Source of the DNA: a virus
Direction: 5' to 3' (one strand)
Length of the DNA: 64,000 bases
IMG/VR virus record: IMGVR_UViG_3300033407_000002
Coordinates: 1 to 64,000 of that record
In this document: positions 2,667 to 48,397 of the stretch, one piece after another
How positions within the stretch are numbered: position 1 is the first letter of the stretch
Layout: every line of letters begins with the position of its first letter
The notes under the pieces: model-generated
Told to the model about the DNA's origin: nothing
What the model saw: the letters and a program-made list of their open reading frames with translations, nothing else
Database searches by the model: none
Position numbers and translations under genes: made by a program

Positions 2667-2963
2667 CTACTCCTCAGGCCAGTGTGGATAATCCTCTCCC
2701 GTTTCAGCGCGGGAGAATACATTGAGCGTCCGCCGCAATTCGCCGCGCGTCGTGACGCAACAGAAATCAATCTCTTCGCCGTCCTCCATGACGCGGTGAA
2801 GCGACCACCAGTACCTCCGTAGACCAGACACATTCCAGTAGAGAAACAGGTCCGTTCCCGGAATCGACCACGTGTTGGGATCCTTCTTCGCCCATCCGCT
2901 CAGCCATTCCCGGTCAATATCCAGTTCGTCTCCGTCGACAGTTGCCGTTGTTTCGGTTTTCAT
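2667..2963 (-). CDS. hypothetical protein
   Basis: 98-aa track ORF; overlaps the next gene by 4 nt. Confidence 0.55.
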   Translation of the reverse strand: MKTETTATVDGDELDIDREWLSGWAKKDPNTWSIPGTDLFLYWNVSGLRRYWWSLHRVMEDGEEIDFCCVTTRGELRRTLNVFSRAETGEDYPHWPEE

Positions 2964-3319
2964 TGACGAAGTCCCTTCAAACTATCCAGTACCGCACTTT
3001 CCACCAACTCAACCGCGCTCTCGGTCTCCAGCATCCGCTCTGGATCGCACTCGGCGGCAACTAGCTCGCGGCAGTTTACCGGCAGATCGTTCTCGATCGA
3101 CTCGACCACGTAACCGGCCAAGTCACGAGCATGCTTGCGGTCGGCTGCCGTTACCTTGCCGCTTGATCCGCCGAGCCGGCTTTTCAGCGACTCCAATTGC
3201 TCGATCAGCGCCCCGATAACGTCGGCTACATTGGCAATCGCGATTCCCGACGCGGCCTGTACGACCTCGCGCTCATAGTCGCGGCGGTCTTCCTCGGTCA
3301 TAGTTAATTGCTGGCTCAT
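2960..3319 (-). CDS. hypothetical protein (first gene of an operon)
   Basis: 119-aa track ORF. RBS AGGAGAG lies 7 nt before the ATG. Preceded by the leader hairpin 3332..3364 and promoter motif 3387..3417. Confidence 0.6.
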   Translation of the reverse strand: MSQQLTMTEEDRRDYEREVVQAASGIAIANVADVIGALIEQLESLKSRLGGSSGKVTAADRKHARDLAGYVVESIENDLPVNCRELVAAECDPERMLETESAVELVESAVLDSLKGLRQ

Positions 3320-3331
3320 CTTTACTCTCCT

Positions 3332-3364
3332 GGCTTGAGGTTTTATTCCCGGCTGGTAAGGCCG
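3332..3364 (-). promoter_or_regulatory. conserved 5'-leader element: hairpin CGGC[CUUACCA]GCCG + AAAACCUCAAGCC
   Basis: Minus strand reads ACGGCCTTACCAGCCGGGAATAAAACCTCAAGCCAGGAG. One of three leader copies (also 8883..8916 and 9006..9044) with a conserved loop and covarying stems. Confidence 0.55.
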
Positions 3365-3386
3365 TGAGTTGTTTTCGTCTCCACAG

Positions 3387-3417
3387 TACCGACTGGATTA
3401 CCGCCGGAATGTGTCGC
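3387..3417 (-). promoter_or_regulatory. promoter-like motif GCGACA-N18-GTC (copy 1)
   Basis: Minus strand: GCGACA CATTCCGGCGG TAATCCA GTCGGTA. It ends 68 nt upstream of ATG 3319. Confidence 0.6.
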
Positions 3418-3454
3418 CGAAACGGTGATTATTCAGAAAGTTTTTGCGTGAGCG

Positions 3455-6416: not shown

Positions 6417-7508
6417 TTAGATATGACAATCGACGATTGTTACCCACTGATCGCCACGGAGCGATGCAACCAACTTGCCGAACTCTCCATCCCATTCGTT
6501 CTGCTCGTTGGAAGCCATGCCCCACCATCCCATCGTCCCCTTCTCGTACCACTTGCCGTCCATCACGACGGCCCAAGCGCTCAGCGACGGTGCGGACTCT
6601 ATCCACTGACCGACCAGCATGCCTTCTGGAACTTCTGGCAATTCAAAATTCGCCTGGCCAGCCCTTGCCCCAAGCGGCCATCGCACCGACGCCCACTCGT
6701 AATACACACCTCCTCGCGGTCGCTCATCGGGCGGCAACAATAGCCACGCGGCATAAGCCTCACGGTTCTGCACGATGGCAATCTCGAACTCTTGCTCGTT
6801 TAGCTCAGCCCGCTTCATGCACTCGACCACCCACTCGCGCCTTTTATCGACGTTTGCCTGCTTCATCGCTTGGCGATCCATGTCGCCAACGCGAGCCTGG
6901 TCTACTTTCGTTCCCAGAATCTCAAGCCTGCCTTCATAACGTCCGCCTACAGTCCACCAGTCCCACCGTTTATTTGGGTTCGTTCTGCGGACGATCTTGA
7001 CCACTTGCCCGAGATCCACCATCGCGTACCCAAACTTGTGCTTCTCGTTCAGCTTCTCGCCAAAGTACGCCACCTCGCTCTGGCTCTTCGCGAAGTCCAA
7101 GAAACTACCTACCTCTGCGGCTGGCAATTCCACTTCCTCGTACCCATCCGGAACGAACTGCACCTTGGCGCGATATCCCTTTCCGTCGTTCCAGTCGTCC
7201 GACCGCCAGTGCATGCCATTTCCCCAGCCGGTCCCGGCGATCGGTCCGATCGTTACCAGCTCCTCGTGCGTCGGGTCACGAAAGAATCGCTCGTCGCTGG
7301 GCAGATGATACTCGCCTTCGCTATCCCGATACCGGACGACTTTCAACGTCTCGAACTCTTTTCGCGTTTCCTCGGTTTCGTCGATATCCTGCACGTACTC
7401 GTCATCGGTGCCCGTACATTCGAACTCATGCCATGGCTGCAACAGAGCAGTCAAACTCTCGTATGTCGGCTGCTCGTCGGTGACTACCATCACGCTGAAG
7501 TGACTCAT
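6417..7508 (-). CDS. conserved-looking hypothetical phage protein
   Basis: 363-aa track ORF (MSHFSVMVVTDEQP...PWHEFECTG...); no catalytic motif recognised. Confidence 0.65.
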   Translation of the reverse strand: MSHFSVMVVTDEQPTYESLTALLQPWHEFECTGTDDEYVQDIDETEETRKEFETLKVVRYRDSEGEYHLPSDERFFRDPTHEELVTIGPIAGTGWGNGMHWRSDDWNDGKGYRAKVQFVPDGYEEVELPAAEVGSFLDFAKSQSEVAYFGEKLNEKHKFGYAMVDLGQVVKIVRRTNPNKRWDWWTVGGRYEGRLEILGTKVDQARVGDMDRQAMKQANVDKRREWVVECMKRAELNEQEFEIAIVQNREAYAAWLLLPPDERPRGGVYYEWASVRWPLGARAGQANFELPEVPEGMLVGQWIESAPSLSAWAVVMDGKWYEKGTMGWWGMASNEQNEWDGEFGKLVASLRGDQWVTIVDCHI

Positions 7509-7554
7509 TTACTCGGCTCCTTGGACTTGGTTTGCTGATGTAACTTCCTGTCAC

Positions 7555-7641: not shown

Positions 7642-8202
7642 CTACTCGCTCGGCATGTCACATTCACTTCTCGGTTTTATGCAACCGTCTTCCATGTCTC
7701 GGCACCAGCCGTCCGGAACCTCGCCTCGACTGACTGCGGATTCATCACGCTTGCGCTGCCGGATGAAATTGCGGAAGCCGCCAAGAGTCTGTCGACTGTA
7801 CCTACCCGTCCCGCGTCCGTAGGCGCCGCGCTCTTCGCGAGCCTCGTACTGTTTTACCCAGCGGCATTGATCCGCCGCCGCCCAAAAATCTATCCCGCCA
7901 TCCAGGACAGTCAGCCGCAACTTCCCCGTGCGCTCGCTCTGTGCGATCACGTAGTACGTCCGCCCCTTGTACTCAACTTTCCCATAGACGGGGCTGTCGG
8001 CTAAGTCCTCTTTGACTTCCTGGCCGTCGAGCTGCCCGACGATGCCTGAAATCTTGTCGGCCTTCGCCGCACCAATCCACCACTGCTTGCGTCCGCCATC
8101 CCAGTGGCAACCGGCACCCTTGAGGCGATCCTTGATCGCATACGTGTTGCCGACTACGTAAATGCGGGCACCAACTTTTTCGGTCGCTACTTCGATTGTC
8201 AT
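7642..8202 (-). CDS. hypothetical protein
   Basis: Track ORF 7642..8376 trimmed to ATG 8202-8200 (MTIEVATEK...), with AGGAAAAAGGA upstream. The N-terminal track extension overlaps the sigma gene and is Arg/Ser-rich. Confidence 0.55.
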   Translation of the reverse strand: MTIEVATEKVGARIYVVGNTYAIKDRLKGAGCHWDGGRKQWWIGAAKADKISGIVGQLDGQEVKEDLADSPVYGKVEYKGRTYYVIAQSERTGKLRLTVLDGGIDFWAAADQCRWVKQYEAREERGAYGRGTGRYSRQTLGGFRNFIRQRKRDESAVSRGEVPDGWCRDMEDGCIKPRSECDMPSE

Positions 8203-8299: not shown

Positions 8300-8869
8300 T
8301 TAGAACAGGCTCGGCTGGCTGGCTTCCGCCCGTGCATTGACCAATCCCTTAGTGACCAGCGAGCGAGCTGCGCCAAGCGTCACGCCAAGCTGCTCGGCGA
8401 TCTGCTGATACTCGGCTCCTTCGATGTATCGCAGACGAACCGCCGCCTGTTGCAGTTGCGGCAGCCGGTCCAGTATCCCGAGCACATGACCACACTCTTC
8501 GCGGACAACCATCGATTCGCGTACCTCGCGGTCGTCCGCCGCCGGCTGGTATCCGTCGCGGCTCTGCTCGGTCGCTACTCCGATGGCAACCTGCTCGGAT
8601 CGCAGTGATCGCTTGCCGGCTCCTAGGTGCGTTGTAACGGCTGTCTCGCATGCGCACTTGGCGATCGTCAGTACCCAGTGGCGGAGCTGATCGAGCGACT
8701 CGGCTCGGCAGGCTGCGGCTCCGGTAACCGCTTTGAGGCATACGGTCTGGTACAGGTCGTCGAGGTCGAACCGCTGATTCATGCGGCTTAGACGGCGGCT
8801 GTAGCGGGCGCGGATGGTTGATTCCAGGTCGGCTAGCGTTTCGCAGACGAGGTCCGGGGTGACTTGCAT
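8300..8869 (-). CDS. ECF-type (group 4) sigma-70 family RNA polymerase sigma factor, paralog 1
   Basis: Region 2 (RFDLDDLYQTVCLKAV...LRHWVLTIAKCA) and region 4 HTH (LDRLPQLQQAAVRLRYIEGAEYQQIAEQLGVTLGAARSLVTKGL). Track ORF 8300..9106 trimmed to ATG 8869-8867, just downstream of a leader element. Confidence 0.8.
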   Translation of the reverse strand: MQVTPDLVCETLADLESTIRARYSRRLSRMNQRFDLDDLYQTVCLKAVTGAAACRAESLDQLRHWVLTIAKCACETAVTTHLGAGKRSLRSEQVAIGVATEQSRDGYQPAADDREVRESMVVREECGHVLGILDRLPQLQQAAVRLRYIEGAEYQQIAEQLGVTLGAARSLVTKGLVNARAEASQPSLF

Positions 8870-8882
8870 TTGAGTAGCTCCA

Positions 8883-8916
8883 GGCTTGAGGTTTTCGTTT
8901 CCGTGGTAAGTCGGAA
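8883..8916 (-). promoter_or_regulatory. conserved 5'-leader element: hairpin UUCCG[ACUUACCA]CGGAA + AAAACCUCAAGCC
   Basis: Minus strand: TTCCGACTTACCACGGAAACGAAAACCTCAAGCCTGGAG, directly before ATG 8869. A TATATA -10-like box lies at 8930-8935. Confidence 0.55.
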
Positions 8917-9005
8917 ATGATTTGTGGTCTATATAGAAAGGCTTGTTTTCAGGCGGTTCAGGGCGCGAAAAGCGGTTATTTTCTGAAAGGTTTTCGGCTC
9001 TGGAC

Positions 9006-9044
9006 GCTTGAGGTTTTTCGTCGCTCCGATTGGTAAGGTCGGAG
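9006..9044 (-). promoter_or_regulatory. conserved 5'-leader element: hairpin CUCCGA[CCUUACCAA]UCGGAG + AAAAACCUCAAGC
   Basis: Minus strand: CTCCGACCTTACCAATCGGAGCGACGAAAAACCTCAAGC. This is a second, tandem copy upstream of the sigma gene. Confidence 0.55.
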
Positions 9045-9063
9045 GTGTCTTTCGTATACCTAC

Positions 9064-9092
9064 ATTCTAGCAGATTGCCGCGCGGCGAACAG
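9064..9092 (-). promoter_or_regulatory. sigma70-like promoter with extended -10 (TGcTAGAAT)
   Basis: Minus strand: CTGTTC-N17-(TGC)TAGAAT, about 20 nt upstream of leader element 9006..9044. Candidate host-RNAP early promoter for the phage sigma gene. Confidence 0.4.
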
Positions 9093-9134
9093 AGGTTTGA
9101 GCCCATAAAACGCTCGGATTTCGCGATTATTTGC

Positions 9135-10172
9135 CTACTTACTTATCGGCAAAATCGGGGTTCCGACATGGGGAAATTCGCGGATTTTCAGCTCGTCCGG
9201 AAACGTGGCAAAGTCATTGAATCCCTTCGTGTCGGCCTGCGAGAACTGCTTGAAGTGGAACGGCACCTTGGCGGCCGCGCACTGGTCCCTGAGCGACCGC
9301 GCCCAGTTGATGTCCATGGGCCTTGCCTTGGGGCCGCTTTCTCCGCCAACTATGACCCAGTTGATACCCGCTGTTCGGTCGCCCCACGCCACCGTTCCCC
9401 AATGCGCAGCAATCATGTCGAGTGGTCCCAACAGCGGCTCGCAGCTCAAGAAAAGCACCGGCGACAAATCCCTGCACCTGAGCAGTTCGGGTATCCGTTT
9501 TTCGGCGTACTCTTGGTTCTCCACGCTGGTTCCAAGGAAAACATTCTCGCGGCGCTTTGGTGTGGCCTTCGACGTAAACGCGCTGGCCAAGTCGCCTTGC
9601 CATCCCGGCCACATGCGGCGGATATTCTCCGGGCGTTTCGTCAAAACTAACCAGTCCAGGTTCGGCGTTGCGTCGATCAGCCTAAACAATCGCGACCGAA
9701 CATCGTCCATGGTGACTGGTTCGCCCTCGCACGGAACGCTACTAGCAACCCACTCAGGCTGCGCGTGGTGCCACCGCTGGTACAACTGCTCGCCTTTGTG
9801 ATTGTGGATCGGCCCTTGCCAATCTTCGAAAACGTCGGCCAAACTAGCGCAGAAGACGCGGGGTCGAGATCGGTCTATCCCGTATTCGCACTCCGGGCAT
9901 CTTGGCAGATCATGCTTGGCGTCTGCGCCACACTGGGCGCAAACCGGTATGTAAGCAGGGGCTGCCTCTCGGTTCCACTTCAGCGGCTTCTTCCACATCG
10001 CCTCAGACGCGACGACTCGGGTTCCGTTCGGCCCCCACACGCCAAGCGTCTTAGGGTTGCGTTTCGACATCGTATCCGCATAACACGAGGCACACCCCGC
10101 CGAAACCTTCGTGCAACCGCGGACGTGGTTAAATGTAGAATCACACCAAGAAATTGCCGTGTTCTCAGCCAT
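9135..10172 (-). CDS. phage Gp37/Gp68 family protein (DUF5131)
   Basis: The N-terminus ISWCDSTFNHVRGCTKVSAGCASCYA is the family signature; 345 aa. Confidence 0.8.
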   Translation of the reverse strand: MAENTAISWCDSTFNHVRGCTKVSAGCASCYADTMSKRNPKTLGVWGPNGTRVVASEAMWKKPLKWNREAAPAYIPVCAQCGADAKHDLPRCPECEYGIDRSRPRVFCASLADVFEDWQGPIHNHKGEQLYQRWHHAQPEWVASSVPCEGEPVTMDDVRSRLFRLIDATPNLDWLVLTKRPENIRRMWPGWQGDLASAFTSKATPKRRENVFLGTSVENQEYAEKRIPELLRCRDLSPVLFLSCEPLLGPLDMIAAHWGTVAWGDRTAGINWVIVGGESGPKARPMDINWARSLRDQCAAAKVPFHFKQFSQADTKGFNDFATFPDELKIREFPHVGTPILPISK

Positions 10173-10360
10173 CAGTATCGCCCCTCATACTTCTCGATAA
10201 TCTTCAGAGCCGTCGCCCGCTGTTTCTCGGACAGCTTCCCGGTCCACTTGTACGCCACGGAATCAATGTAGCCAGCTTCCCACTGCGTTACGTCGATATC
10301 GTCGCTATTGTCGATTGCTAGCAGTTCTTCTCGGATTTGTACGTCGGTCATCTCAGCCAT
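10172..10360 (-). CDS. hypothetical small protein
   Basis: Track ORF 10172..10705 trimmed to ATG 10360-10358 (MAEMTDVQIREELL...). TGATG overlap with the Gp37/Gp68 start. Confidence 0.45.
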   Translation of the reverse strand: MAEMTDVQIREELLAIDNSDDIDVTQWEAGYIDSVAYKWTGKLSEKQRATALKIIEKYEGRY

Positions 10361-10751
10361 CGAAACTCTTACCTTCCTCCCCGGTCGGCGGCCAACCACC
10401 GGCAGCCAGCGCGTCCGTACCGTACATCGCCCAATGTTCATGGAACTTCTGGCAATGCGCCACCGGATCAAACGATTCGCCGCGCACCTCGGCGCATGTC
10501 CACGCGATGATAAGCCCGCTAATGTCGTCCGCATGCGCGATACCATAGCTTGCCACCGCGTCACGTTTAAGCGGTGAATCAGCCTCCCAGAACGACCAGG
10601 CGTTCCGCATACCGGTCCCGAGCGTATGGTGGAATACCGTGCCGTCACTCGCGGCGCGGATCGCTCGCTTGTCCTGCTCGTCCATTGCGCTGACAAGCGT
10701 TTCAACGGCGCTCTTGATGGATGACGGGATTATGTCTCCATTGATGTTCAT
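10353..10751 (-). CDS. hypothetical protein
   Basis: Track ORF 10353..10823 trimmed to ATG 10751 (MNINGDIIPSS...). Confidence 0.5.
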   Translation of the reverse strand: MNINGDIIPSSIKSAVETLVSAMDEQDKRAIRAASDGTVFHHTLGTGMRNAWSFWEADSPLKRDAVASYGIAHADDISGLIIAWTCAEVRGESFDPVAHCQKFHEHWAMYGTDALAAGGWPPTGEEGKSFDG

Positions 10752-10774
10752 GCGATGTTCCTTGCTTTCCCAAA

Positions 10775-11236
10775 TTAACTCGCTTGGCGTTTCATCCCAA
10801 GAGAATACGGCACTGTTGCCCAATGGAAGTCAACGCCTTCCGCGCACGCTCGCGACCATCCGAACTCGTCCTCCCACGCACGACGAAGCATTTCGTCATT
10901 TTCTACCCACCTCTCAATTGCCTGCTCCGCCGCCTTGCGGGTCTTGAAGCCGCACTGGCCGCCTCCATCGGATGTTAACACCCACGACTTGCCATTCTTT
11001 TGAATCGAGAACCTAGAGCGGACGCGGACATACGGTTCTCTCGGAACTAACTCCAGAAACCTATGCTCATGCGCCGCCTTCATTGCCGACTCCAGGCATT
11101 CGTGGTCGATGTTTTTGGTCATCTCACCGAACCTAATCTGCACCAACCATCTACGGTCATACGTCCGGCTGATGAACCACTGGGGATGCCTCTCGTCAAG
11201 GACTCGTGCAATCTCGTCAATACTCAGATCGGCCAC
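10775..11236 (-). CDS. hypothetical protein
   Basis: 153-aa track ORF. Confidence 0.55.
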   Translation of the reverse strand: MADLSIDEIARVLDERHPQWFISRTYDRRWLVQIRFGEMTKNIDHECLESAMKAAHEHRFLELVPREPYVRVRSRFSIQKNGKSWVLTSDGGGQCGFKTRKAAEQAIERWVENDEMLRRAWEDEFGWSRACAEGVDFHWATVPYSLGMKRQAS

Positions 11237-11252
11237 CTAACACTCCTATCGT

Positions 11253-11552
11253 TCAATCTTCCCTCTGTACCCCGAGACCTTCGGCAATTACCTCAATCTC
11301 AGCCGCTTCGTACACCAGAAACTGCTGGTCGTAATCGAACATTCCCCAGCGACTCTCAATCAAGTCGACTGCCGGCGCATCGCCGTTGTATGAGCACGCA
11401 ATCAGCGATGCCTCAAAGAAATCCTGCGGCCCGCCGTCGCGCGAAATCACTTCCCCACGTCGATACAAGCCCGCCACAATACATGGCTTCCAATATGAGA
11501 ACACGGTCCCGACTGGAAGCCTGCAAAACTCATCGAACCCGACGATCTTCAT
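11253..11552 (-). CDS. hypothetical protein
   Basis: 99-aa track ORF. Confidence 0.5.
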   Translation of the reverse strand: MKIVGFDEFCRLPVGTVFSYWKPCIVAGLYRRGEVISRDGGPQDFFEASLIACSYNGDAPAVDLIESRWGMFDYDQQFLVYEAAEIEVIAEGLGVQRED

Positions 11553-12294
11553 GTATCGATTCCTCCAACAAGGATGCTAGACGCTTCACCATGAGCGCTT
11601 CATCAAGCGTTCCGTCCACGCGATTCGCAATCGCCGCGATGATTCGATCGCGGATCTTAAAGTCGAGTACGTCATACCCTAGCGCGACCATCACGTCTTC
11701 TGCAATCATCCTCGATACGGAAACACACTTGTCTTTATCTGCCAGCCATACGCCTTCCCCTGTCCTGTATGCGGAAAACGCCACTCTAGGCTTCTCGTCC
11801 ACCGCTGCCTTCTGGCCAGAGGTGCCGTCATCCACTTGCAATGCGGACGACAGCCCGAGACTTCCAACGGCACTCGGAGGCACCCATCCCTTCCATCGGC
11901 TTTCCCGATCCACTGCGGTCGGATCGTCGGTACATGCACCCGCTTGGCGGATCGCCGCCTCCCATGCCGTCTTGATCTGATCCGGCAGTTCGCCCCACGG
12001 AGGCATCGGATCGCCACGAAAATTCTTGTTGCCGGTGCTCCATGAATAAGCACGGTACGCACTGTGCGCTATATCGCTCCATGCCATTCCTGCCGTCGCC
12101 TGCTGCGAGTCAAGCAACAACTCCGCATCATCGCATACGAACATGATTCCCAGCGGCGGCGCGAAGTCATCGTCATCGCCTTCCCAGTCGTTCTCAGCAC
12201 CAACGACAGCTCGCCATCGCTCCTCCGCTTCCGAGTAATTCTTCGCCAGCACATAGGCTGGACGGTCGGCGTCTTGGACGTGAAACAACGGCAT
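11530..12294 (-). CDS. hypothetical protein
   Basis: 254-aa track ORF. The 305-aa plus-strand ORF 11063..11980 over it is Ser/Arg/Pro-rich shadow. Confidence 0.6.
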   Translation of the reverse strand: MPLFHVQDADRPAYVLAKNYSEAEERWRAVVGAENDWEGDDDDFAPPLGIMFVCDDAELLLDSQQATAGMAWSDIAHSAYRAYSWSTGNKNFRGDPMPPWGELPDQIKTAWEAAIRQAGACTDDPTAVDRESRWKGWVPPSAVGSLGLSSALQVDDGTSGQKAAVDEKPRVAFSAYRTGEGVWLADKDKCVSVSRMIAEDVMVALGYDVLDFKIRDRIIAAIANRVDGTLDEALMVKRLASLLEESIHEDRRVR

Positions 12295-12533
12295 GCGTAT
12301 TGTCCCTTCAGGAATTAAGCGGCACTAATAAAAAATGAGCGGAGGATTCAAAGCGACTGGACACGTGCTTAAAGCTTAAATACTTGTCGTCGCGGTGCTG
12401 CTCTTATCCGCTCGGCCTACAGTCCCGGCCATTTCAATCACGACCGATCAAAGCCAGCCTTCCACTGGACCCGAGCATCCGACAATGCCTTGCGGTCGTA
12501 TAAACCCGACCACCTTCGGTGTTTTACCTATAC

Positions 12534-12857
12534 TCAGCCAGGACAGTTTCTCAATGCAACGATGGCCTTTTCAAGCAGCGCTATGCACTCGCCGACTTCA
12601 CCGCGAATCGTGCAATAGTTCATCCTCACCGGCATGTTTTCACCGCCTCCAATTGAAATGCGGAGTATGCCCTGTTCGTCGTTTGGCATAAGGCGGCAAT
12701 GGATGTCGTTCGACTTCCAATCGGCCAATGACTTTTCTCCTGCCGCGCCAGTCGTGATCGTCGACGCGGCCGCCTTCTGTGCTGCGTCCGCCCGCTCGCG
12801 AAGTCGCTTGAGGAATTCGCCTCGGAGGCTGTGCGATTCATCGTCATGCGTTTGCAT
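12534..12857 (-). CDS. hypothetical protein
   Basis: 107-aa track ORF; ATG 12857 lies 22 nt after the U-run of the ncRNA locus. Confidence 0.55.
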   Translation of the reverse strand: MQTHDDESHSLRGEFLKRLRERADAAQKAAASTITTGAAGEKSLADWKSNDIHCRLMPNDEQGILRISIGGGENMPVRMNYCTIRGEVGECIALLEKAIVALRNCPG

Positions 12858-12878
12858 AAGTCATTCCCTAATGAAATG

Positions 12879-13021
12879 AAAAAACAAAAAGATCGGCGGG
12901 GATTACCCTCTCGGCATACTGGCTTACCTGCAATCCATCCCTTCACCCGTTAGCCTCCCGGGAAGCCAACGCGCCTCGTTCGATCGCGCCTCCTCGAAGG
13001 AACTGCACGCGCCACCGATCC
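12879..13021 (-). ncRNA. candidate structured RNA, module C (closing helix + short hairpin + U-run)
   Basis: The 5' GGAUCGGUGG (13021-13012) can pair with CCGCCGAUC (12899-12891). That segment is preceded by hairpin GGG-UAAU-CCC and followed by UUUUUGUUUUUU. It starts with the same 12-mer GGATCGGTGGCG as module A. Confidence 0.35.
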
Positions 13022-13244
13022 AAGCGAGCGCTGCGGATTCGAACCGCTTCCCCAACCTGCTGGCCACGGCCTTAGGCACGCTGGGTTTAACCTGTGGTCT
13101 CCGTGGAAACCCGCTCGTAAGTGCTCTGCCGTCTCTCCGGCTGAGCAGTACGTCAAGCCTTGATTCGGTGGCTTCTCCCTACCCCAATTACTAGACATTT
13201 GAGAGCCGTCTTGAATTGGTAAGTCATCCAGCTCTACGCTTACT
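13022..13244 (-). ncRNA. candidate structured RNA, module B (canonical tRNA T-arm sequence, CUUACCA-loop hairpin)
   Basis: Minus strand carries GCGG-TTCGAAT-CCGC (13047-13033, an exact GGTTCGAATCC T-loop 11-mer). It also carries hairpin AGAGC...TGA[CTTACCAAT]TCA...GCTCT (13235-13202) and a 10-bp hairpin TGCTCAGCCG-GAGAGA-CGGCAGAGCA. No coding potential is convincing. Confidence 0.35.
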
Positions 13245-13430
13245 AAAAGGATCGGGCAGGATTCGCACCTGCACTCAGGGACTCTTCTCAATGCCATAGT
13301 TCGGCCACCTTCGCGCGATGGCGAGTCAGGTTAGCGCCGTTCAGCTTGAGGTTGGTACTTCTGATCGCCTTCGACCGACTTCAATTAGGTCCGCATCTAC
13401 AGGCTAGCGTCTACATGCCGCCACCGATCC
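13245..13430 (-). ncRNA. candidate tRNA-like RNA, module A (acceptor-like helix + T-arm + U-run, ~182 nt)
   Basis: The 5' GGAUCGG (13430-13424) is perfectly complementary to CCGAUCC (13255-13249). That segment directly follows T-arm GCAGG-UGCGAAU-CCUGC (13272-13256) and is followed by UUUU. The 5' end lies about 8 nt downstream of promoter motif 13443..13473. Confidence 0.45.
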
Positions 13431-13442
13431 GGTCTCCAACCA

Positions 13443-13473
13443 CATAGACCGATTTACCCAGCAAGTATGTCGC
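13443..13473 (-). promoter_or_regulatory. promoter-like motif GCGACA-N18-GTC (copy 5), drives the ncRNA locus
   Basis: Minus strand: GCGACA TACTTGCTGGG TAAATCG GTCTATG. Confidence 0.55.
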
Positions 13474-14015
13474 TACCCGCCGCGAATTTTATTCCACCGC
13501 CGTATCCGGCGCTCCTCCTTCGACTCCCGGCACTGCTTGGCGAATTCCATGTCGGCCAACCTATCGTCGGCAAGCACCTCATCCCTACGCTTCCTCTCCT
13601 CCGGCCCCTCGTAGACAACGCCATCGCTCTCATACAGTCCGGCCGGCGAACTACCGGCCACCTGTCCAATACCCACGTACGGCGCTACCTCCCGAATCTT
13701 CGCCAGCGAAAGCAGCCCCACATTGCGGCACGATAGCAGCTCCGAATCCGGCACATTCCTAACCGATCCAATCGTCACATAGCCGCGTGACTCCAGACCG
13801 TTGGCCATCCGGGTCGGCAGCACACTTGCCAGCGGCGTACAGTCCTCCATATTCCACTCGCGCGATGACGCCAGATCCTCGGATCGCTTCCGCCGCGCGT
13901 AACGAATGAACTCCCGGCAGGCTTGCACGTACTTCCGCTGCTGCATTAGCACCCGGACTTCACCCATTACCCTGGAGAAGTCCTCCATCCATGCATAGCC
14001 TACTTCTTTGTGCAT
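13473..14015 (-). CDS. RNA polymerase alpha-subunit C-terminal-domain-like (HhH) protein
   Basis: LPTRMANGLESRGYVTIGSVRNVPDSELLSCRNVGLLSLAKIREV aligns by eye with the alpha-CTD pattern L-V-R-S-A-N-C-L...I-G-D-L...E-L-L...N-L-G-K-K-S-L-x-E-I. Track ORF trimmed to ATG 14015 (MHKEVGYAW), 8 nt after the upstream stop. Confidence 0.6.
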   Translation of the reverse strand: MHKEVGYAWMEDFSRVMGEVRVLMQQRKYVQACREFIRYARRKRSEDLASSREWNMEDCTPLASVLPTRMANGLESRGYVTIGSVRNVPDSELLSCRNVGLLSLAKIREVAPYVGIGQVAGSSPAGLYESDGVVYEGPEERKRRDEVLADDRLADMEFAKQCRESKEERRIRRWNKIRGG

Positions 14016-14023
14016 CTGCGCGA

Positions 14024-14344
14024 TTACTCCTGCTCGTCGTACAGGCGGCGCCAGTCCCGTAGCGTGAACCGCTGCCACATGTGACGCTCATAGGACACTC
14101 GACCGAAGGCCGCTATGCCACGCAAAAGTGACCCTCGATTTCCAGTCTCTATCTCGTCCAGCAACCCCAGTCGGTCCCGGCATGTCCGACTGTTGCAGAC
14201 TAACGCCCAGGCCATCAACCCGAAAAACAACAGCCAGCCGAAACCAGTAAGCACCACTACAGCCATGCGATCACCTCTATCCCGATTAAGAGTAGCCGAG
14301 CACTTCAGCCGTTCAATGCTAGGACCGTAGAGTCGGCCAGACAT
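14024..14344 (-). CDS. hypothetical membrane protein (1 TM)
   Basis: Track ORF 14024..14470 trimmed to ATG 14344 (MSGRLYGPS...). TM segment AVVVLTGFGWLLFFGLMAWALV. The start is uncertain. Confidence 0.4.
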   Translation of the reverse strand: MSGRLYGPSIERLKCSATLNRDRGDRMAVVVLTGFGWLLFFGLMAWALVCNSRTCRDRLGLLDEIETGNRGSLLRGIAAFGRVSYERHMWQRFTLRDWRRLYDEQE

Positions 14345-14375: not shown

Positions 14376-14855
14376 TTACCCGTTGTCCTTGCCGGCCGAT
14401 TCTTCCTCGCGCTTCTTTTTGTTCTCTTCGATCTTCTTTGGATCGGGTTTGTACTTGCCGGTCGATTCAATGCCGGTACCCTCGAGCATCGATTGCTTAG
14501 CGTCGGCCTCGGACATGCCGTGCTCCTGTAGAAACGCGACTAGCTTTTCGGCTTCGTCGATTTCGTCTTCTCCCCAGACAACCTCTGGCTCGCCACCTTC
14601 CGGTTCCTCGGCCTCTTCGGCGGTTTCTTCGATGGGTTTCGTTTCCGTAGCCTCGGTCTCAACTGACTCGGTCTCAACGTCCTCGGGCTTACCCTCCTCC
14701 GCGACTTCGGTTTCATCAGCCATCACGTCCTGCGCCGGGCTTTGTTCGTCACCTTCAACTACCAGATCACCAGCAGACCAAAGCATCTTGTTGCTCTGGC
14801 TTTTTACCGGTGGTGTATCGTCGGCTTCATTTACTTCATCTGCTTTTTCCGTCAT
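14376..14855 (-). CDS. highly acidic protein (scaffold-like or decoy-like; function unknown)
   Basis: 159 aa with long Glu/Asp/Thr-rich tracts; 4-nt overlap with the portal stop. Confidence 0.55.
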   Translation of the reverse strand: MTEKADEVNEADDTPPVKSQSNKMLWSAGDLVVEGDEQSPAQDVMADETEVAEEGKPEDVETESVETEATETKPIEETAEEAEEPEGGEPEVVWGEDEIDEAEKLVAFLQEHGMSEADAKQSMLEGTGIESTGKYKPDPKKIEENKKKREEESAGKDNG

Positions 14856-17800
14856 AGCAATAGCTCCGCTTGTACGACCCAGTATGAACCAACCTGTTTC
14901 CCGTCCGACATTATCGGCTTGCGGTCCACGCCTGTAACCTTGTATTTACTGTTCCGGTTCAAAACGACCTCATGCTGGTGCAATGATTCGTGGCCGAGCG
15001 CTACGTCTGGAGACAGCGCCTTAGTCCCTTTCGGCAGACTGATCTCGAACCTCCCTGTCTGGCCAGAGTCCACATTGTTGGCAAATCCATCGGCCACATT
15101 CTGCATCGTAGACGTCGAACCAAACCCTTTATCCGTGAGCGTCTTACCAATAAAGGACTCAGGATCACTGCCGAGCATGTTTTCAAAATCCCCGCCGCCG
15201 CGATAAACCGTCATCGGCTCGGCCAATTCCGGCGCTCTCTGAAATGCCCCGTCCAGATCCTTGATCTTTTGCTTGTTGTCCGAATCCATTTTCTGCTTGC
15301 CGCGCAGACCGTCGTTCATGTCGGAAAAACTACCGCCGGTATAGACCGCGATCGCGTCAATATCCTTTTCCGATGCTCCCTTGGCCCACTCTCCGAACTG
15401 CTTGTTGTGCAGTTCCGCCGAATCCTTGCCGGTCATCGACGAGGTGCCGATCTGGCTTTCCCACTTATGGCCACTGGCCAGCACAAACTCATTTGCCGTG
15501 CGGTCTACCTTAGGTTTTCCGGTTCCGCCTGACTTTAGATCGTCCGCCTGCGCCCGCATCCTCTTGGCATCACCACTCCATTTCGCCGCCAGTTCCGGGT
15601 TTAACTCGGCAAACTTCTTGGACTTGTCCTCGAGACGATCCGCTTCGGCGGTCAGTCCAGCGATCTCCTTCTTGACCTTGGGCGACAGTTCTTTCGGTGC
15701 CTCCTTTTTCGGTTCACCTGGAGCCTCCTCTTTCGGAGCCTCCTTTGGTTTCTCCTTTGTCTCGTCCTTCTTGCCGGCGGCCGGAGTCTCATCGCCACCA
15801 CCCGCTAATTTCGGAAACAGTTTTTTCGCTGAGGCTATGGACCCCGCAGCGGCTGCCACATTGCCCGACGATACCCATCTGCCGTTTGCGTCTCGCGGCT
15901 GATTCGGGTTGTACGCCTTGGCAAGACTGCCGCCGATGGCATCCACAATCGCCTTGACCAACCCGGCATCGACTCCCTTGCTTGCCCCCGCGTCGTGCTG
16001 CCGGAACTCGCTCTGAAGATGACCGACCACCGCCGACAATTCGCGGATGCTCTGACCGACATCATGCGAGACCGCCGCCTTCTGCAACTCCCTCAGTTCG
16101 GCGGACAGCGATTCGACTTGGCTCTTGATCGCAACGGTCTGCGGATCCTCAAAATCCACCCTCTCGGAAAATGCGGACTTGGCCAGCGCAATCCCCGGAG
16201 CACTGACCGGCTCACGTACCGGCCTGGTCGCGCCGCGCAACGGTACCCGGACCCTCTGCCCCCCAACGACCACGACCGCATAGGACAAGCTCGCCGCCGA
16301 ATTCAGTAGTTCATTACGTGGATCCGGTACAGACCCATGCTTCTGAATGTACCCAAGCGTCACATGCGGCTGATAATCCGGGTACGTTTCCACGACCGGT
16401 AGTGCCGCCAAGAGCCGGTCATGCGCTCCGTGGATCGCGGTACCCAGCACTTCGACCTTCAGTACGTTTTCGTCGTCGTTCTCGAACAGGCCACTTGGTC
16501 CGAATGTCACGTCAATCTGATCCAGCCGACGAACCTGGTCCACCACTTCTTTCAGCGGCGTTCCGACGATTCCATACAAGAGCGTTACGTGCGGCCATTC
16601 TTCCAGACCGTCTCCGACCATCGAGTCGGGATCGATCTTGGCTTGTTCGGCTTTGACCAGCTCCAAGACCGACGGCGGCAATTCGAGCATCACTGCTCCC
16701 GGCTTCTCCTCGGCCGGAGTGCCTCGCAATAAGCGGTCGCGTACTTCCCCCTCGGGCAATAGCGCCGCGATCTCCTCAATGCCCGCACCACCCGCTACCG
16801 CCCGATCGTCCCAGTAAACGTCCGCGAACACCTTGCCGCTTGGCATGTCGTTTAGCGCTACGTCCGGATTCTCGTTGATGCCGTCGTACGGTATCCCATG
16901 CGAATCGAGCCAACCTCGCAATAGTTCGTTGTCCTCCCGACAGGTGAAGATCACGATCCGGCAGCCGGCGCGCTTCAGGCGATGGAGCTTATCGACCGCC
17001 GACGATATCGGTTCACCTATTGTCTCGACATGAAACGAGCCGTCGTACTCGGCCAGCGTCCCGTCGAGGTCAACCGCAACGACTGGTCCGGGGCGCTCTG
17101 ACCTTCCGGGAATCGCCTTGGATAGCGACTTGCCGAACGACCGCGCAAACGGCGACGTGAGCCCGGCGGCACTACCATTGCCATTCGCCGCTCCTCCCAC
17201 TCCACCGTCTAGCGGAGGCTGACCCTGCTTCTTTGGCGGCTGCGGTTCGTCGACAACCAGACCAGTCGATGTGACTCGAGCATCGTCCCGCCAATCTCCA
17301 AACGGCTGTAATCCACGGATCGCCCGCCACTCACGCATGGTCCTAACACCGGCGGTCAAGTCGGTCGTTAACTGCTGCTCGATCAGCGTTGGATCGTCTA
17401 GCGGCTGCGTCTCGAACTCGACGCTGACTGTTGCCCCTTCGTCCTGCGCGAGCATCGTCCATTCGCCGCCAAGTAGGTCCAGGTCCCCTTGCACGACCGT
17501 TAGCGTTTGCATCAACGACGCGGCCAAACTGCCATAAGTCATATTGTCCGATAGACCGGCCGCCGATTCACCGACACCATGTCCGGCCAGTATGGACCGC
17601 TGCAACTGATCGAATGCCTGGACGTACTCCATGTCCACCGGCGCGGTATCGCGGCTCAACGTCGCACCGCCTCCCATCGCTATGGCCGATTGGTCGGTAT
17701 CCTCGTCCTGCAACTTTCGGTTGAGCCGCTTTTCCGCCGCGTCCAGCTCCGGCTCGCTGATCGTCTTATCTTCGAACGACACGAACCCCAGCGGCCGGGG

Positions 17801-18544
17801 TCCTCGCTTGAGCTGTTTCCACCTGGTCATGTCGACCATCAGAGCCGAGTCAATCCACCAGCCAACCGCATCGGTCGGACTCTTGCCGTCGCCCCTAAGG
17901 TAAGGGTGCGGCAGGCGGATCACGCTCAGGGATTCGACCGGCAGTATCGCGCCGGAGAGCATGCGAATGAGCGGATTGACGATGAAACCTAATCCGGCCT
18001 GGTAGTGCAGTAGCCGGATTCCGCCGTTGGGACAGTTCTCATACTGGCCGGGGTAGACCGGCTGAGTCAGCGCCATGGGAATGATATACCGCGCCGCTGT
18101 CCGGCTGCCGTCTTGCGTCGGTCGGTTCCAGATCAGGCAGCATCCGTGCAGGTGCAATTGCTGGATATATTCCCAGCGGAACATGGCTCCTGACTCGGTC
18201 CGGTTTGGCTGGTCGACCATGCGCGCGACCCAGTTATCTTCCGGCACGGTATCGGCTGAGCCGTCTTGCGCCATGGACTTCCAGATCGAGCCCCATTTCT
18301 TTCTGGCGGCCTTGCGCTTGGCGGTTTTGGCCGGTTCGGCGGAGTATACGTAGCCGTGGGCACGCGCGGCTTGTCGGCCAAGGACCGCGATCGCTACGTA
18401 GTTCCAGCCCTGGTAGCTTTTACTTTCCTTATTGTGGTCCGAGCCCCATTGGCCGATATTATGGTGGCCGAGTACGTCGGCTATTGCCTCGTGATAGGCG
18501 GGATCGGACTGGACCTGAAGGCCGGCCGGTAACTTGAATGCCAT
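14852..18544 (-). CDS. portal protein fused to HAD phosphatase, 2H phosphoesterase and ADP-ribosyltransferase domains
   Basis: A single 1230-aa ORF directly downstream of the terminase genes. Residues 1-435 are portal-like. Residues 485-585 are HAD (VAVDLDGTLA, VIFTCRE, KVFADVYWDD). Residues 615-770 are 2H, with two HxT motifs (PHVTLLY, PHVTLGY). A Lys/Glu-rich linker and an NPNQPRDANGRW motif follow. Residues 1015-1230 are an R-S-E ADP-ribosyltransferase (VYRGG, GFGSTS, QHEVVL). Confidence 0.85.
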   Translation of the reverse strand: MAFKLPAGLQVQSDPAYHEAIADVLGHHNIGQWGSDHNKESKSYQGWNYVAIAVLGRQAARAHGYVYSAEPAKTAKRKAARKKWGSIWKSMAQDGSADTVPEDNWVARMVDQPNRTESGAMFRWEYIQQLHLHGCCLIWNRPTQDGSRTAARYIIPMALTQPVYPGQYENCPNGGIRLLHYQAGLGFIVNPLIRMLSGAILPVESLSVIRLPHPYLRGDGKSPTDAVGWWIDSALMVDMTRWKQLKRGPRPLGFVSFEDKTISEPELDAAEKRLNRKLQDEDTDQSAIAMGGGATLSRDTAPVDMEYVQAFDQLQRSILAGHGVGESAAGLSDNMTYGSLAASLMQTLTVVQGDLDLLGGEWTMLAQDEGATVSVEFETQPLDDPTLIEQQLTTDLTAGVRTMREWRAIRGLQPFGDWRDDARVTSTGLVVDEPQPPKKQGQPPLDGGVGGAANGNGSAAGLTSPFARSFGKSLSKAIPGRSERPGPVVAVDLDGTLAEYDGSFHVETIGEPISSAVDKLHRLKRAGCRIVIFTCREDNELLRGWLDSHGIPYDGINENPDVALNDMPSGKVFADVYWDDRAVAGGAGIEEIAALLPEGEVRDRLLRGTPAEEKPGAVMLELPPSVLELVKAEQAKIDPDSMVGDGLEEWPHVTLLYGIVGTPLKEVVDQVRRLDQIDVTFGPSGLFENDDENVLKVEVLGTAIHGAHDRLLAALPVVETYPDYQPHVTLGYIQKHGSVPDPRNELLNSAASLSYAVVVVGGQRVRVPLRGATRPVREPVSAPGIALAKSAFSERVDFEDPQTVAIKSQVESLSAELRELQKAAVSHDVGQSIRELSAVVGHLQSEFRQHDAGASKGVDAGLVKAIVDAIGGSLAKAYNPNQPRDANGRWVSSGNVAAAAGSIASAKKLFPKLAGGGDETPAAGKKDETKEKPKEAPKEEAPGEPKKEAPKELSPKVKKEIAGLTAEADRLEDKSKKFAELNPELAAKWSGDAKRMRAQADDLKSGGTGKPKVDRTANEFVLASGHKWESQIGTSSMTGKDSAELHNKQFGEWAKGASEKDIDAIAVYTGGSFSDMNDGLRGKQKMDSDNKQKIKDLDGAFQRAPELAEPMTVYRGGGDFENMLGSDPESFIGKTLTDKGFGSTSTMQNVADGFANNVDSGQTGRFEISLPKGTKALSPDVALGHESLHQHEVVLNRNSKYKVTGVDRKPIMSDGKQVGSYWVVQAELLL

Positions 18545-18556
18545 GGGGTGGATCTC

Positions 18557-18578
18557 TCTCCGCTAGAGTAAGCGGAGA
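18557..18578 (-). promoter_or_regulatory. perfect 8-bp hairpin overlapping the portal Shine-Dalgarno region
   Basis: Minus strand: TCTCCGCT-TACTCT-AGCGGAGA followed by GAGATCCACCCC-ATG (18544). The 3' arm contains GGAGAGAG. Confidence 0.35.
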
Positions 18579-18632
18579 CGATACCACTGGCGGGGAGCAA
18601 TCTAAAGGTTTACCGGGAGGCGAGCGGTCCGC

Positions 18633-47220: not shown

Positions 47221-47787
47221 TCACTCTTCAAACCCCGGCAGCGAATACTGCCCCAGTTCCGCCCTCGCTTGTCGGACCGCTTGGCATACGCTGGTCCTCG
47301 CGGCCGCTATTGTCACCCCGAGTTCTTCCGCGATCTGTTGATACGACCGCTGCTCGAGGAACCGCATTCTCAGCACGGCCTGACGCTGGGGCGGCAATCG
47401 GTCCAGACATGCCAGCATGTGCCGGCACGCTTCACCATGGACCAGCTCACTGGACTGTTCGCACCACGGCTCCACGTACGGCAGGTCACCGGAAGTGGCT
47501 ACGATGGCTCGCTCCCGCATGGTCGACCGCTTGCCGCTGAGCCGATGGGTCGCGATCGCCGAACGGAACACGTTGGCGGCGATTTTCAGAATCCAGTTCC
47601 GGCACTCGGCTGCGGACTGAGCCTGGCATCGCTCGTGATTCCGGTAAGCTCGCCAGCAGACCGACTGATAGAGGTCGTCCACATCGAACCGATGGCTCAC
47701 TCCCGAGAGCGCGCCGCGGTAGCGTTGTTCGATGATGGGCTGTACTTCCGACAAGACTTCGACAAGATCGTCCGATCCAACAGACAT
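47221..47787 (-). CDS. ECF-type sigma-70 family sigma factor, paralog 2
   Basis: RFDVDDLYQSVCWRAY...CRNWILKIAANVF (region 2) and LDRLPPQRQAVLRMRFLEQRSYQQIAEELGVTIAAARTSV (region 4). Confidence 0.8.
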   Translation of the reverse strand: MSVGSDDLVEVLSEVQPIIEQRYRGALSGVSHRFDVDDLYQSVCWRAYRNHERCQAQSAAECRNWILKIAANVFRSAIATHRLSGKRSTMRERAIVATSGDLPYVEPWCEQSSELVHGEACRHMLACLDRLPPQRQAVLRMRFLEQRSYQQIAEELGVTIAAARTSVCQAVRQARAELGQYSLPGFEE

Positions 47788-47860: not shown

Positions 47861-48397
47861 CTACCTGGACAGTTCACGCACGTTATCAAGTCCTCTGGTT
47901 ACCAGAGTCCGAGCAGCGCTGACGGTTATTCCCATGCGATCGGCGATTGCCGGGTATCCCAGTTCCTCGAGATATCGCATGCGGATAGCGGCCGCTTGAC
48001 GCTGGGGAATTTGGTCGAGACTCCGCTGTACGATTTGGAACTGACCGGCGGTTTCCTCGGCTGCCTCGATCGCCTGTAGTGGCTGCGGCTCTGGAGCAAC
48101 CGCCTCATCGCCGGCATTGCTCTGGACCAGTACCGGTCGCTTCTGGGTCCCTAGTTCCTTCTGCAGTTCCGAGAGCATCGTGTGTTTGGCGATGACCAAT
48201 ACCCAGTTCCGTAGGTCTTCCATGGACTTGGCGCGGCACGTATCGGCGGCTCGGGTGGCTTTCATCGCGGTAACCTGTACCAGGTCATCCGCGTCAAACC
48301 GCGACTGGATCGGCGATAGACGGTTTCTGGCTCGCCGGCGGACTTCCGGGGCTGTCTGCTCCAGCGCGGCATGAATATCGAGGGGCTCGGATGACAC
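47861..48397 (-). CDS. ECF-type sigma-70 family sigma factor, paralog 3
   Basis: RFDADDLVQVTAMKAT...LRNWVLVIAKHTM (region 2) and LDQIPQRQAAAIRMRYLEELGYPAIADRMGITVSAARTLV (region 4). Confidence 0.8.
   Translation of the reverse strand: MSSEPLDIHAALEQTAPEVRRRARNRLSPIQSRFDADDLVQVTAMKATRAADTCRAKSMEDLRNWVLVIAKHTMLSELQKELGTQKRPVLVQSNAGDEAVAPEPQPLQAIEAAEETAGQFQIVQRSLDQIPQRQAAAIRMRYLEELGYPAIADRMGITVSAARTLVTRGLDNVRELSR

Follow-up and report, generated by a model that had tools for sequence, protein, structure and literature searches.

Leader hairpins of an uncultivated tailed phage are candidate targets of a two-site antisense small RNA

Introduction

The closest described counterparts of the system considered here are two antisense RNAs of phages: the c4 RNA of P1 and P7 blocks ant expression (icd-ant) (PMC8198154), and the CI RNA of P4 pairs with two leader sites, seqA and seqC, shutting off the early operon (PMC4825925). 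Here, we analyze 64,000 nucleotides of viral DNA (positions 1 to 64,000 of IMG/VR record IMGVR_UViG_3300033407_000002; hereafter the window), in which a hairpin with the loop motif CUUACCA, followed by a linear box, occurs in three 5' leaders: once ahead of a nine-gene operon and twice, in tandem at 8883-9044, ahead of a gene for a sigma factor resembling those of the extracytoplasmic function (ECF) type. Several groups of phages use ECF-like sigma factors of their own for middle and late transcription; to our knowledge, little is known of what limits the synthesis of these factors.

The c4 RNA uses two short, separate segments (a' and b') against two sites in the icd-ant (immI) leader, one of which lies beside the ribosome-binding site (RBS). 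Related phages are said to carry matched changes in c4 RNA and target, a form of heteroimmunity reportedly described by Citron & Schuster in 1990. In the phage studied here, the leader elements are conserved, as is a gene resembling that of a small RNA (sRNA) on the same contig, and the collinear complementarity between the two switches in a lineage-specific manner among relatives. We propose, with a probability of roughly 0.6, that the leaders are recognized at two sites, loop and box, by an antisense sRNA that the phage encodes and that acts in trans; by pairing with both sites, it would repress translation in the manner of P1 c4 and P4 CI.

Results

The window belongs to a 100,221-bp contig from an uncultivated tailed phage. 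Identity between the terminase and those of Rhizobium phages does not exceed 32%, and comparison with the phage collection gave no nucleotide match. Genes are encoded almost exclusively on the minus strand of the window, and the three leader copies, A to C, are read on this gene-sense strand, where every sequence quoted for them by a first-pass annotation of the window was recovered at its given coordinates. From 5' to 3', the copies follow a common layout of promoter, 10-15 nt, hairpin, 2-5 nt, and (A)AAAACCUCAAGC(C/G). The annotated distance of 6-9 nt between hairpin and box holds for CCUCAAGC, although the A-run in front of it already starts 2-5 nt from the hairpin. Read directly from the sequence, copy A consists of the hairpin CGGC[CUUACCA]GCCG (3350-3364) and the box AAAACCUCAAGCC (3332-3344), with the Shine-Dalgarno (SD) sequence GGAG (3330-3327) 1 nt 3' of the box and the ATG at 3319 (SD and ATG together, 3317-3330); it heads the gene of a 119-aa protein (2960-3319), the first in its nine-gene operon. 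Copy C, likewise read directly, combines the hairpin UUUCCG[ACUUACCA]CGGAAA (8898-8917) with the box AAAACCUCAAGCC (8883-8895), an SD at 8881-8878 and the ECF-like sigma gene, paralog 1 (ATG at 8869; SD and gene, 8300-8881; Pfam Sigma70_r4_2, 2e-11, and r2, 5e-5; 26 homologs). Copy B sits 120 nt upstream of copy C and, on direct reading, carries the hairpin CUCCGA[CCUUACCAA]UCGGAG (9024-9044) and the box AAAAACCUCAAGCG (9005-9018); its SD is degenerate (CCAGAG), and it has neither an intact SD and ATG nor an open reading frame (ORF) of its own. In agreement with the first-pass annotation, all copies are promoter-proximal, two ahead of sigma paralog 1 and one ahead of the operon starting at 3319, and in copies A and C the GGAG SD and the ATG come directly 3' of the box.

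Of the homologs of sigma paralog 1, all metagenomic, 7 are close and 18 more distant. The relatives' DNA was obtained for eleven loci, in ten of which the upstream DNA was readable. A covariance model of hairpin plus box assigns 40-44 bits to the three window copies (43.8, 39.8 and 40.7 bits for A, B and C) and 11 bits to the next match in the window; it found further copies in the sigma leaders of the relatives L095, L096, and L100/L098, at 41-42 bits, and nothing else above 17 bits in any locus. The distance from box to SD is 1-5 nt in five of the six full copies (A and C of the window, L095, L096, and L100).

A complement to both leader motifs lies just outside the window. The ~120-nt sRNA-like gene, at L103:11083-11202, is on the same contig and strand, 98 nt past the left end of the window (L103 is the window's own contig, extended; L103 coordinate x equals window 10968 - x, so that the gene occupies window positions -115 to -234). 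It is located in a 224-nt gap that opens where the genes of the copy-A operon end; copy A itself is ~3.4 kb and the sigma gene ~9 kb upstream. Directly behind the sRNA-like gene come an ECF-type promoter and a gene for an HNH endonuclease (L103:11290-11952). Homologs are present at L095:7766-7876 and L096:9642-9755, ~250 nt upstream of the sigma leader and on the same strand. These two were first noticed by eye, and the L103 homolog was found by extending the window contig. The three elements show 71% column identity in alignment; an sRNA model matches all of them, but all three are its training sequences.

From 5' to 3', the sRNA-like element contains an invariant CUCCG (anti-SD), GGCUUGAGG (anti-box, largely single-stranded), a 3' hairpin with the loop CUGGUAA (anti-loop), and a U-tract. 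In L103, a TACAAT -10 element is followed by three helices, GGCUUGAGGCC, GGA-CUGGUAA-UCC, and GUUUUCUUCUC; in L095 and L096, GGA-CCGCGAA-UCC occupies the same place, and the leader loop there is CUCGCAA. The -10 elements (TACAAT, TACAAT, and TATAAT in L103, L095, and L096, respectively) precede the first conserved helix by 8-9 nt, while the -35 regions are poor and a consensus scanner calls no promoter. G-U pairs within the helices would be A.C mismatches on the opposite strand. The 3' hairpin of L095, GCCGGACCGCGAATCCGGC followed by ATCCGTTTTA, was flagged as terminator-like, whereas the 3' stem in L103 is just 4 bp long, with GUUUUCUUCUC 9 nt downstream, and no terminator was flagged there.

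The core of the sRNA reads GGAC-N4-AAUCCGGCA. Scans of IMG/VR and metagenome contigs with an sRNA core pattern returned chance matches only, including two matches to the hairpin core in coding regions. Rfam 15 gave nothing relevant in the window (gathering threshold), in window 8800-13600 or L103 (E<=1), or in L095, L096, L097, and L100 (E<=0.1). Anti-box candidates inside the window were discarded: the sense-strand occurrences of GCUUGAGG at 28730, 33707, and 39957 are all within long ORFs. A weak match to the sRNA model (11 bits, E 0.85) at L103:12728-12839, on the minus strand of the locus, reads AUGGAC-aCGCAAA-UCCGG..CGCUUUUUC; it runs opposite to the genes, inside an ORF, and is probably due to chance.

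The order 5'-anti-SD, anti-box, anti-loop-3' of the sRNA faces the order 5'-loop, box, SD-3' of the leaders, and pairing between the two is antiparallel and collinear (Watson-Crick matches are predicted from the sequences). The sRNA of the window contig matches the box over 9 nt in copies A and C and over 8 nt in copy B, and the loop over 7 nt in copy A and 6 nt each in copies C and B; against A, C, and B, respectively, 0, 0, and 1 of 20,000 dinucleotide shuffles of the sRNA do as well. The 9-nt match of the copy A box is a Watson-Crick match to GGCUUGAGG of the sRNA (-18.1 kcal/mol; -18.0 kcal/mol for copy C), and UUACCAG of copy A pairs with 7 nt of the sRNA loop. The L095 sRNA matches the box of its own leader over 9 nt (41 of 20,000 shuffles), or 4 of 20,000 when all three sites are counted; for L096, the 8-nt box match (186 of 20,000) improves to 1 of 20,000 with an added 6-bp contact, GGAGAC:GUCUCC, between the SD and the invariant CUCCG region. 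Combinations with differing box types remain at background.

These matches follow the lineage. Three lineages display three combinations of motifs: box CCUCAAGC with loop CUUACCA in the window, box CCUCAAGC with loop CUCGCAA in L096, and box CCCUAAGC with loop CUCGCAA in L095. Each sRNA fits its own leader at both sites: the anti-boxes GCUUAGGG (L095) and GCUUGAGG (L096) are exact complements of their own boxes, CCCUAAGC and CCUCAAGC, and the anti-loop, CUGGUAA or CCGCGAA, tracks the leader loop. Energies were calculated at the level of single sites, given that duplexfold on full-length RNAs produced inflated values. Box-site duplexes reach -14.4 to -18.1 kcal/mol when the types match and -7.9 to -10.4 kcal/mol when they differ; the corresponding values for the loop-loop duplex are -4.9 to -6.1 and ~0 to +1 kcal/mol. 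Among random 7-nt loops, 6 bp are expected at p ~0.001 and 4 bp at p ~0.05. The reverse complement of the sRNA resembles the leaders only at the short complementary islands, and the sRNA locus is therefore not an inverted duplicate of a leader. Separately, the 5' end of leader C, AGACCAC (8924-8930, minus strand), is complementary over 7 nt to GUGGUCU of the central sRNA helix; this match occurs in copy C only and may be chance.

The first-pass annotation had likened the hairpin and box to antitermination sites and had pointed to GGUAAG, on the same strand, as a complement of the loop. While the idea of complementarity proved fruitful, the sRNA-like gene is a far better complement to both elements, and the likeness to antitermination sites was not supported. 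In lambdoid nut sites, boxA (CGCUCUUA / UGCUCUUUA) lies a few nucleotides 5' of boxB, a 5-bp stem with a purine-rich, GNRA-like pentaloop, and HK022 put comprises two adjacent stem-loops of ~65-70 nt that act in cis on RNA polymerase without a protein factor. Here, no boxA-like sequence occurs within one mismatch near 3317-3440 or 8867-9100, and boxA-like matches across the window stay below chance (22 versus 34 expected). Hairpin and linear box come in the opposite order to nut, with the box on the 3' side; the pyrimidine/A-rich loops of 7-9 nt are not GNRA-like, and each copy has a single short hairpin instead of two large stem-loops.

A broader version of this idea is that a phage or host protein reads loop and single-stranded box as an RNA operator, nut-like antitermination included; N with boxB, T4 gp43, RegA, and coat proteins provide precedents. 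Operators of this kind classically combine a conserved loop on variable stems with a conserved linear box, the sigma operon has a terminator-like hairpin behind it (7620-7599), and many early proteins have no recognizable domain, so that a binder could be among them. However, a Pfam scan of 19 early proteins detected no RNA-binding or antiterminator domain, be it an arginine-rich motif (ARM), KH, S1, or NusG-like, albeit small ARM proteins would escape Pfam. There is also no terminator downstream of copy B before copy C, and both loop and box change among close relatives in step with the RNA partner, for which a protein operator would need an additional co-evolving protein. We regard such an operator as unlikely.

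Returning to the elements as targets of an antisense sRNA, the statistics of the motifs point to loop and box as a unit. In the window, CCUCAAGC is enriched (9 occurrences versus 2.4 expected; 0 of 100 shuffles reach 9), whereas CUUACCA by itself is not (5 versus 3.5 expected); the signal is the combination of loop and box and not the heptamer alone. Matches to CTTACCA-N6-14-AAACCTCAAGC elsewhere (6 in IMG/VR and 88 in GTDB) were dismissed as chance: ~150 are expected, and they come from unrelated taxa, lack an SD or ATG, and have stem lengths at background. The ~90 chance matches in 596 Gb of genomes served as the null for stems, in which a flanking stem of at least 4 bp is present in ~10% and one of at least 6 bp in ~3%; the stems of the window copies measure 6, 6, and 4 bp. 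Folding energies of single copies are unexceptional (z -0.35 to -1.4), as expected for stems this short.

Two further explanations of the arrangement were rejected. The box does not sequester the SD, as only CUC:GAG (3 bp) is able to pair and folds leave the SD open. Neither do loop and box form a -35/-10 promoter for a phage sigma factor: their spacing varies from 10 to 17 nt, the loop motif is absent in L095 and L096, transcripts would lose the SD, and the actual sigma-type class is GCGACAC-N17-GTC. The hairpins could instead be terminators for antisense transcription, given that they have T-rich tails when read on the plus strand and that the scanner lists all three there, plus the L095 leader hairpin on its antisense strand. 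This we consider barely credible: the tails are weak (e.g. GTGTCTTTCG), terminator-like sites are as frequent as in shuffles (10 versus 9.7), plus-strand genes or promoters that converge on the hairpins are missing, and the conserved loop and box would be left unexplained.

Comparison with relatives shows how the element has been maintained. Synteny is kept, with a portal fusion followed by sigma, and the sigma leaders of 7 of the 10 readable relatives have a stem-loop, closely followed by an AAACC tract and the SD. The stems are unrelated: CCCGGC[CUUACCA]GCCGGG in L100, ACCGAC[CUCGCAA]GUCGGU in L095, ACUGAC[CUCGCAA]GUCGGU in L096 (including a U-G pair), GUUGG[GUUUACCG]CCAAC in L097, CAUCGG[ACUUAUCAC]CCGAUG in L116, GCGG[CUACCAA]CCGC in L118, and GAACAC[18 nt]GUGUUC in L119. 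Regarding the other three, L117 is unclear, L102 has none, and L101 is too short to judge. Compensatory stem changes thus keep the hairpin across relatives, which supports the earlier view that stem covariation marks a functional RNA structure. The annotated invariance of the CUUACCA loop, on the other hand, applies within this genome only; across the family the loop is similar, with CUCGCAA in L095 and L096. Only the clade of the window, L095, and L096 has the UCAAGC half of the box (L100 has the variant CCCCAAGG), and the full box (..YYAAGC) and the sRNA are likewise seen in this clade alone. In more distant sigma leaders, the conserved part consists of hairpin, AAACC, and SD.

No sRNA homolog was seen within +-10 kb of the distant sigma leaders, and targeted anti-loop searches in L097 and L116-L119 were negative; a generic two-site complement scan of the same loci had no power, its noise being equal to the signal. 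Protein-guided searches (sigma, the 119-aa protein, and a sigma alignment) yielded no relatives in IMG/VR or JGI metagenome contigs. Two further sigma paralogs are encoded in tandem at 47221-47787 and 47861-48397 (minus strand; phmmer E 1e-38 and 1e-29 versus paralog 1), and the hairpin/box element is absent ahead of both. As to the neighboring portal (14852-18544, minus strand; 1230 aa), it is fused to 2'-5' RNA ligase/Acb1-like and ADP-ribosyltransferase (ART; exoenzyme toxin) domains, and portals of the relatives have NUDIX in place of, or besides, the ART domain. The portal leaders at 18545-18632 (minus strand) and L095:3625-3690 share a GGUAAACCUU..CCCCGCC..GCUUAC.. layout, and the one in L095 ends in CUUACCCCAAGC-GGAG, resembling a fused loop and box that the leader model does not recognize.

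The persistence of hairpin, AAACC, and SD in distant sigma leaders without a detected sRNA is what a generic leader cassette would predict. According to this explanation, the 5' hairpin guards the mRNA against 5'-end-dependent decay, the A/C-rich AAAACC... tract serves as an unstructured ribosome standby site or enhancer, and the copies are alike because promoter-leader modules were duplicated; complementarity to the sRNA would be incidental, or the element would do something else. Copies A and C are clearly duplicated modules (same upstream block, same 62-nt spacing), the hairpin begins ~10-15 nt from the likely transcription starts, and two-site complementarity of this size is common. Three observations are left unexplained, namely the constant loop sequence on the three differently stemmed copies, the conserved intergenic element complementary to both motifs, and the switching of the complements together with the leader in L095 and L096. 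A cassette of this kind is compatible with antisense control and does not exclude it; as the explanation of loop and box we judge it rather unlikely.

Copy A lies behind a predicted phage-specific, ECF-type promoter, GCGACAC-N17-GTCGGT (3388-3417, minus strand), assigned by motif count; the overlapping block CTTTCTGAATAATCACCGTTTCGGCGACAC (3411-3440, minus strand), read directly, is common to copy C, L095, and L096. The class GCGACAC-N17-GTC(G/T)(G/T/A) has 8 sense-strand and 0 antisense sites in a 73-kb merged contig, all on the minus strand (first bases at window 39887, 19030, 7585, 6411, and 3417, and at -242, -1611, and -4187 outside it), with one-mismatch GCGACAT versions at 13473 and ~28990; a loose form counts 12 sites versus 1.06 expected, and L095 and L096 contain the class as well. 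Its layout is that of an ECF-sigma promoter; presumably the phage sigma factor reads it, and the sites probably make up the regulon of this factor. Copy B is preceded by a sigma-70-type promoter with the extended -10 element TGCTAGAAT (9064-9072, minus strand), homologous to TGTTAGAAT (L095) and TGGTAAAAT (L096) ahead of sigma. Copy C has the upstream block and a second promoter type, GCGCCCT-N17-GCC-TTTCTATATAG (8929-8990, minus strand), recognized from the relatives' layout. The layout of this type, GCGCC..-N17-GCC-N3-5-TAtAgTAG(G)AC, lies ahead of sigma in the window (8929-8966, minus strand), L095 (~7895-7935), L096 (~9772-9815), L100 (186-222), and L117 (~9915-9955), of which a regular expression confirmed L100 only, the others being read by eye. 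This layout parallels that of the GCGAC/GTC class, and its reader may be another sigma paralog. The AGAC that had been annotated as conserved near start sites is present at each copy, but it is not a general start-site motif of the phage's promoters.

The region upstream of copy B is homologous to the sigma promoter region of L095, and L095 and L096 have a single sigma leader each, to which copy B is orthologous; copy B is therefore the ancestral sigma leader. Given the common block and the identical block-to-loop distance of 62 nt in A and C, the C module looks like an A-type module that recombined at the box into the old sigma leader, which appears to have left copy B with a decayed SD. Two observations concern promoters more generally. 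A 201-aa protein (13473-14078, minus strand) has a segment resembling the carboxy-terminal domain of the RNA polymerase alpha subunit (Pfam RNA_pol_A_CTD, 2.5e-5) and may bear on promoter usage by the phage, and conserved non-coding ACCCAACUGUGAAGCGA(A)GGGCAGAGCGCCUAGCAGGG is found directly behind an ECF-type promoter at L095:7500-7560 and L096:7215-7290.

With every copy being promoter-proximal and the phage possessing its own promoter classes, loop motif and box could also be double-stranded sites for a DNA-binding regulator, functional in both orientations, with the sRNA locus as an inverted pair of such sites; concerted change with the specificity of the regulator would likewise result in lineage switching. 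Yet the spacing of the motifs varies (12-17 nt in the leaders, ~25 nt in the sRNA locus), the box is downstream of the transcription start and beside the SD, and none of the other 7 promoters of the GCGACAC class carries the motifs. In addition, the loop motif is always presented by a hairpin, whose stems differ and whose G-U pairs (L096 leader, sRNA) are meaningful only in sense RNA. Sites acting at the DNA level are, in our view, very unlikely.

Looser relatives of both motifs had been annotated at 12.9-13.4 kb and are present as described: a hairpin, GAGCUG[..ACUUACCAAUUCAAGA]CGGCUC (13202-13235, minus strand), and UACCAACCUCAAGC (13344-13357, minus strand). They are, however, in reversed order and 110 nt apart, and the leader model recognizes neither the hairpin nor the second piece (8 bits). 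Both belong to an apparently non-coding stretch of ~550 nt (12880-13450, minus strand) behind a GCGACAT-N17-GTC promoter, which contains two T-arm-like motifs (GCGGTTCGAATCCGC, GCAGGTGCGAATCCTGC), GGUAAG, the two pieces resembling box and loop, and, close to a 3' U-tract, GGGUAAUCC. Neither ARAGORN nor Rfam gives a match in this stretch, and the relatives have no detectable sequence homolog of it except for T-arm-like fragments; L096 carries two tRNA genes (7410-7517 and 7820-7896) at a comparable place. The stretch could represent degenerate tRNA-like genes, an attP-type tRNA fragment, or a target or sponge of the sRNA, and the two pieces are possible extra sRNA sites.

Discussion

From the arrangement of leaders and sRNA gene, we infer that the sRNA is expressed, pairs with the leaders in vivo, and represses them. 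A loop-loop kiss between the 3' loop of the sRNA and the leader loop would nucleate the complex, and a box duplex of 8-9 bp would then form directly 5' of the SD, possibly along with the CUCC:GGAG contact. This duplex would exclude the 30S subunit and thereby repress translation of the sigma factor and of the 119-aa protein encoded first in the operon starting at 3319; mRNA decay or polarity may follow the translational block. That the box adjoins the SD points to control of translation initiation. Given that the operon starting at 3319 has an ECF-type promoter of the phage and carries the sRNA gene at its distal end, the sRNA might provide negative feedback or a timer on the sigma cascade, or an immunity-like brake.

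Several points weigh against this proposal. Complementarity alone does not make the case: an unbiased two-site complement scan of the 75-nt sigma leader reaches totals of 15-17 by chance, equal to the true 9+6, and the argument therefore rests on homology, motif-exact targeting, and switching. Only three sRNA lineages are available, and their internal structure has no statistical support from covariation; RNAalifold pairs part of the anti-box within the sRNA. The element on the window contig combines a 3' stem of only 4 bp, for which no terminator is called, with the poor -35 region seen in all three. The loop-loop match in L095 and L096 is just 4 bp (p ~0.05) and shifted by one nucleotide relative to the register in the window, and some multiple testing is involved, as the L095 and L096 elements were spotted by eye and the L103 copy is one of 4 antisense matches to the box. 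Moreover, the hairpin is kept in relatives without a detected sRNA and may have an sRNA-independent role, such as 5' stabilization. The direction of regulation we infer from position only.

A more far-reaching version of the proposal, which we advance tentatively and at somewhat less than even odds, is that a new family of phage regulatory RNAs gates the sigma cascade. One sRNA would read a modular address of two or three parts (loop, box, and SD) on several leaders, and the modules would evolve independently as specificity determinants of a heteroimmunity-like or timing switch. Should sRNA-mediated repression be borne out, a lineage of ~100-kb uncultivated phages would possess an RNA switch on ECF-type sigma factors, that is, an RNA-level brake whose code comprises a 7-nt loop and an 8-9-nt box and could be easily engineered. 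The natural specificity variants would then offer ready orthogonal sRNA/leader pairs for synthetic biology. For annotation, a covarying hairpin in a phage leader should be taken as a reason to look for complementary sRNAs, also beyond the window under study.

How do these elements compare with systems already described? As in nut and put, a hairpin near the promoter presents a conserved loop, a conserved linear box lies next to it, and more than one early operon has the arrangement. Unlike either, the element is adjacent to an SD and has a complementary RNA partner, and in contrast to HK022 put each copy has one hairpin of 4-6 bp, with the rest of the leader predicted to be unstructured. As in P4, the candidate sRNA of L095 and L096 is encoded just upstream of its target and in the same orientation. 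However, CI is a processing product of the leader transcript and acts by terminating transcription prematurely; the box studied here abuts the SD, which suggests translational control, and the RNAs have no similarity in sequence or structure.

The resemblance to P1/P7 c4 is one of principle: a phage regulatory operon would be addressed in its leader by two short complementary segments, each with a site of its own, and one of these sites is near the RBS. In our case, an anti-box of 8-9 nt and an anti-loop of 4-7 nt are collinear with their sites, the box being 1-5 nt from the SD. The differences are equally clear, as there is no match to the C4 model of Rfam, the predicted targets are an ECF-like sigma factor and a sigma-dependent operon rather than an antirepressor, and three leaders are addressed. 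Furthermore, C4-family RNAs are processed by RNase P from the transcript that carries their targets, and the sRNA of the window contig is ~9 kb away from the sigma leader and not co-transcribed upstream of it. If correct, our proposal would extend the two-site principle of P1 c4 and P4 CI, heteroimmune variants included, to an unrelated RNA family and another kind of target.

Beyond phages, the OxyS sRNA kisses a hairpin loop of fhlA mRNA with its own loop and occupies a second site at the RBS, by which translation is blocked. Loop-loop pairing combined with a second site at the RBS is also what we propose here. While OxyS is a stress sRNA of the host, the candidate sRNA is phage-encoded and self-targeting, and one of its two sites is a linear seed in place of another kissing loop. 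In this respect it resembles the trans-acting sRNAs of the Hfq type, with seed complementarity that co-varies across three lineages.

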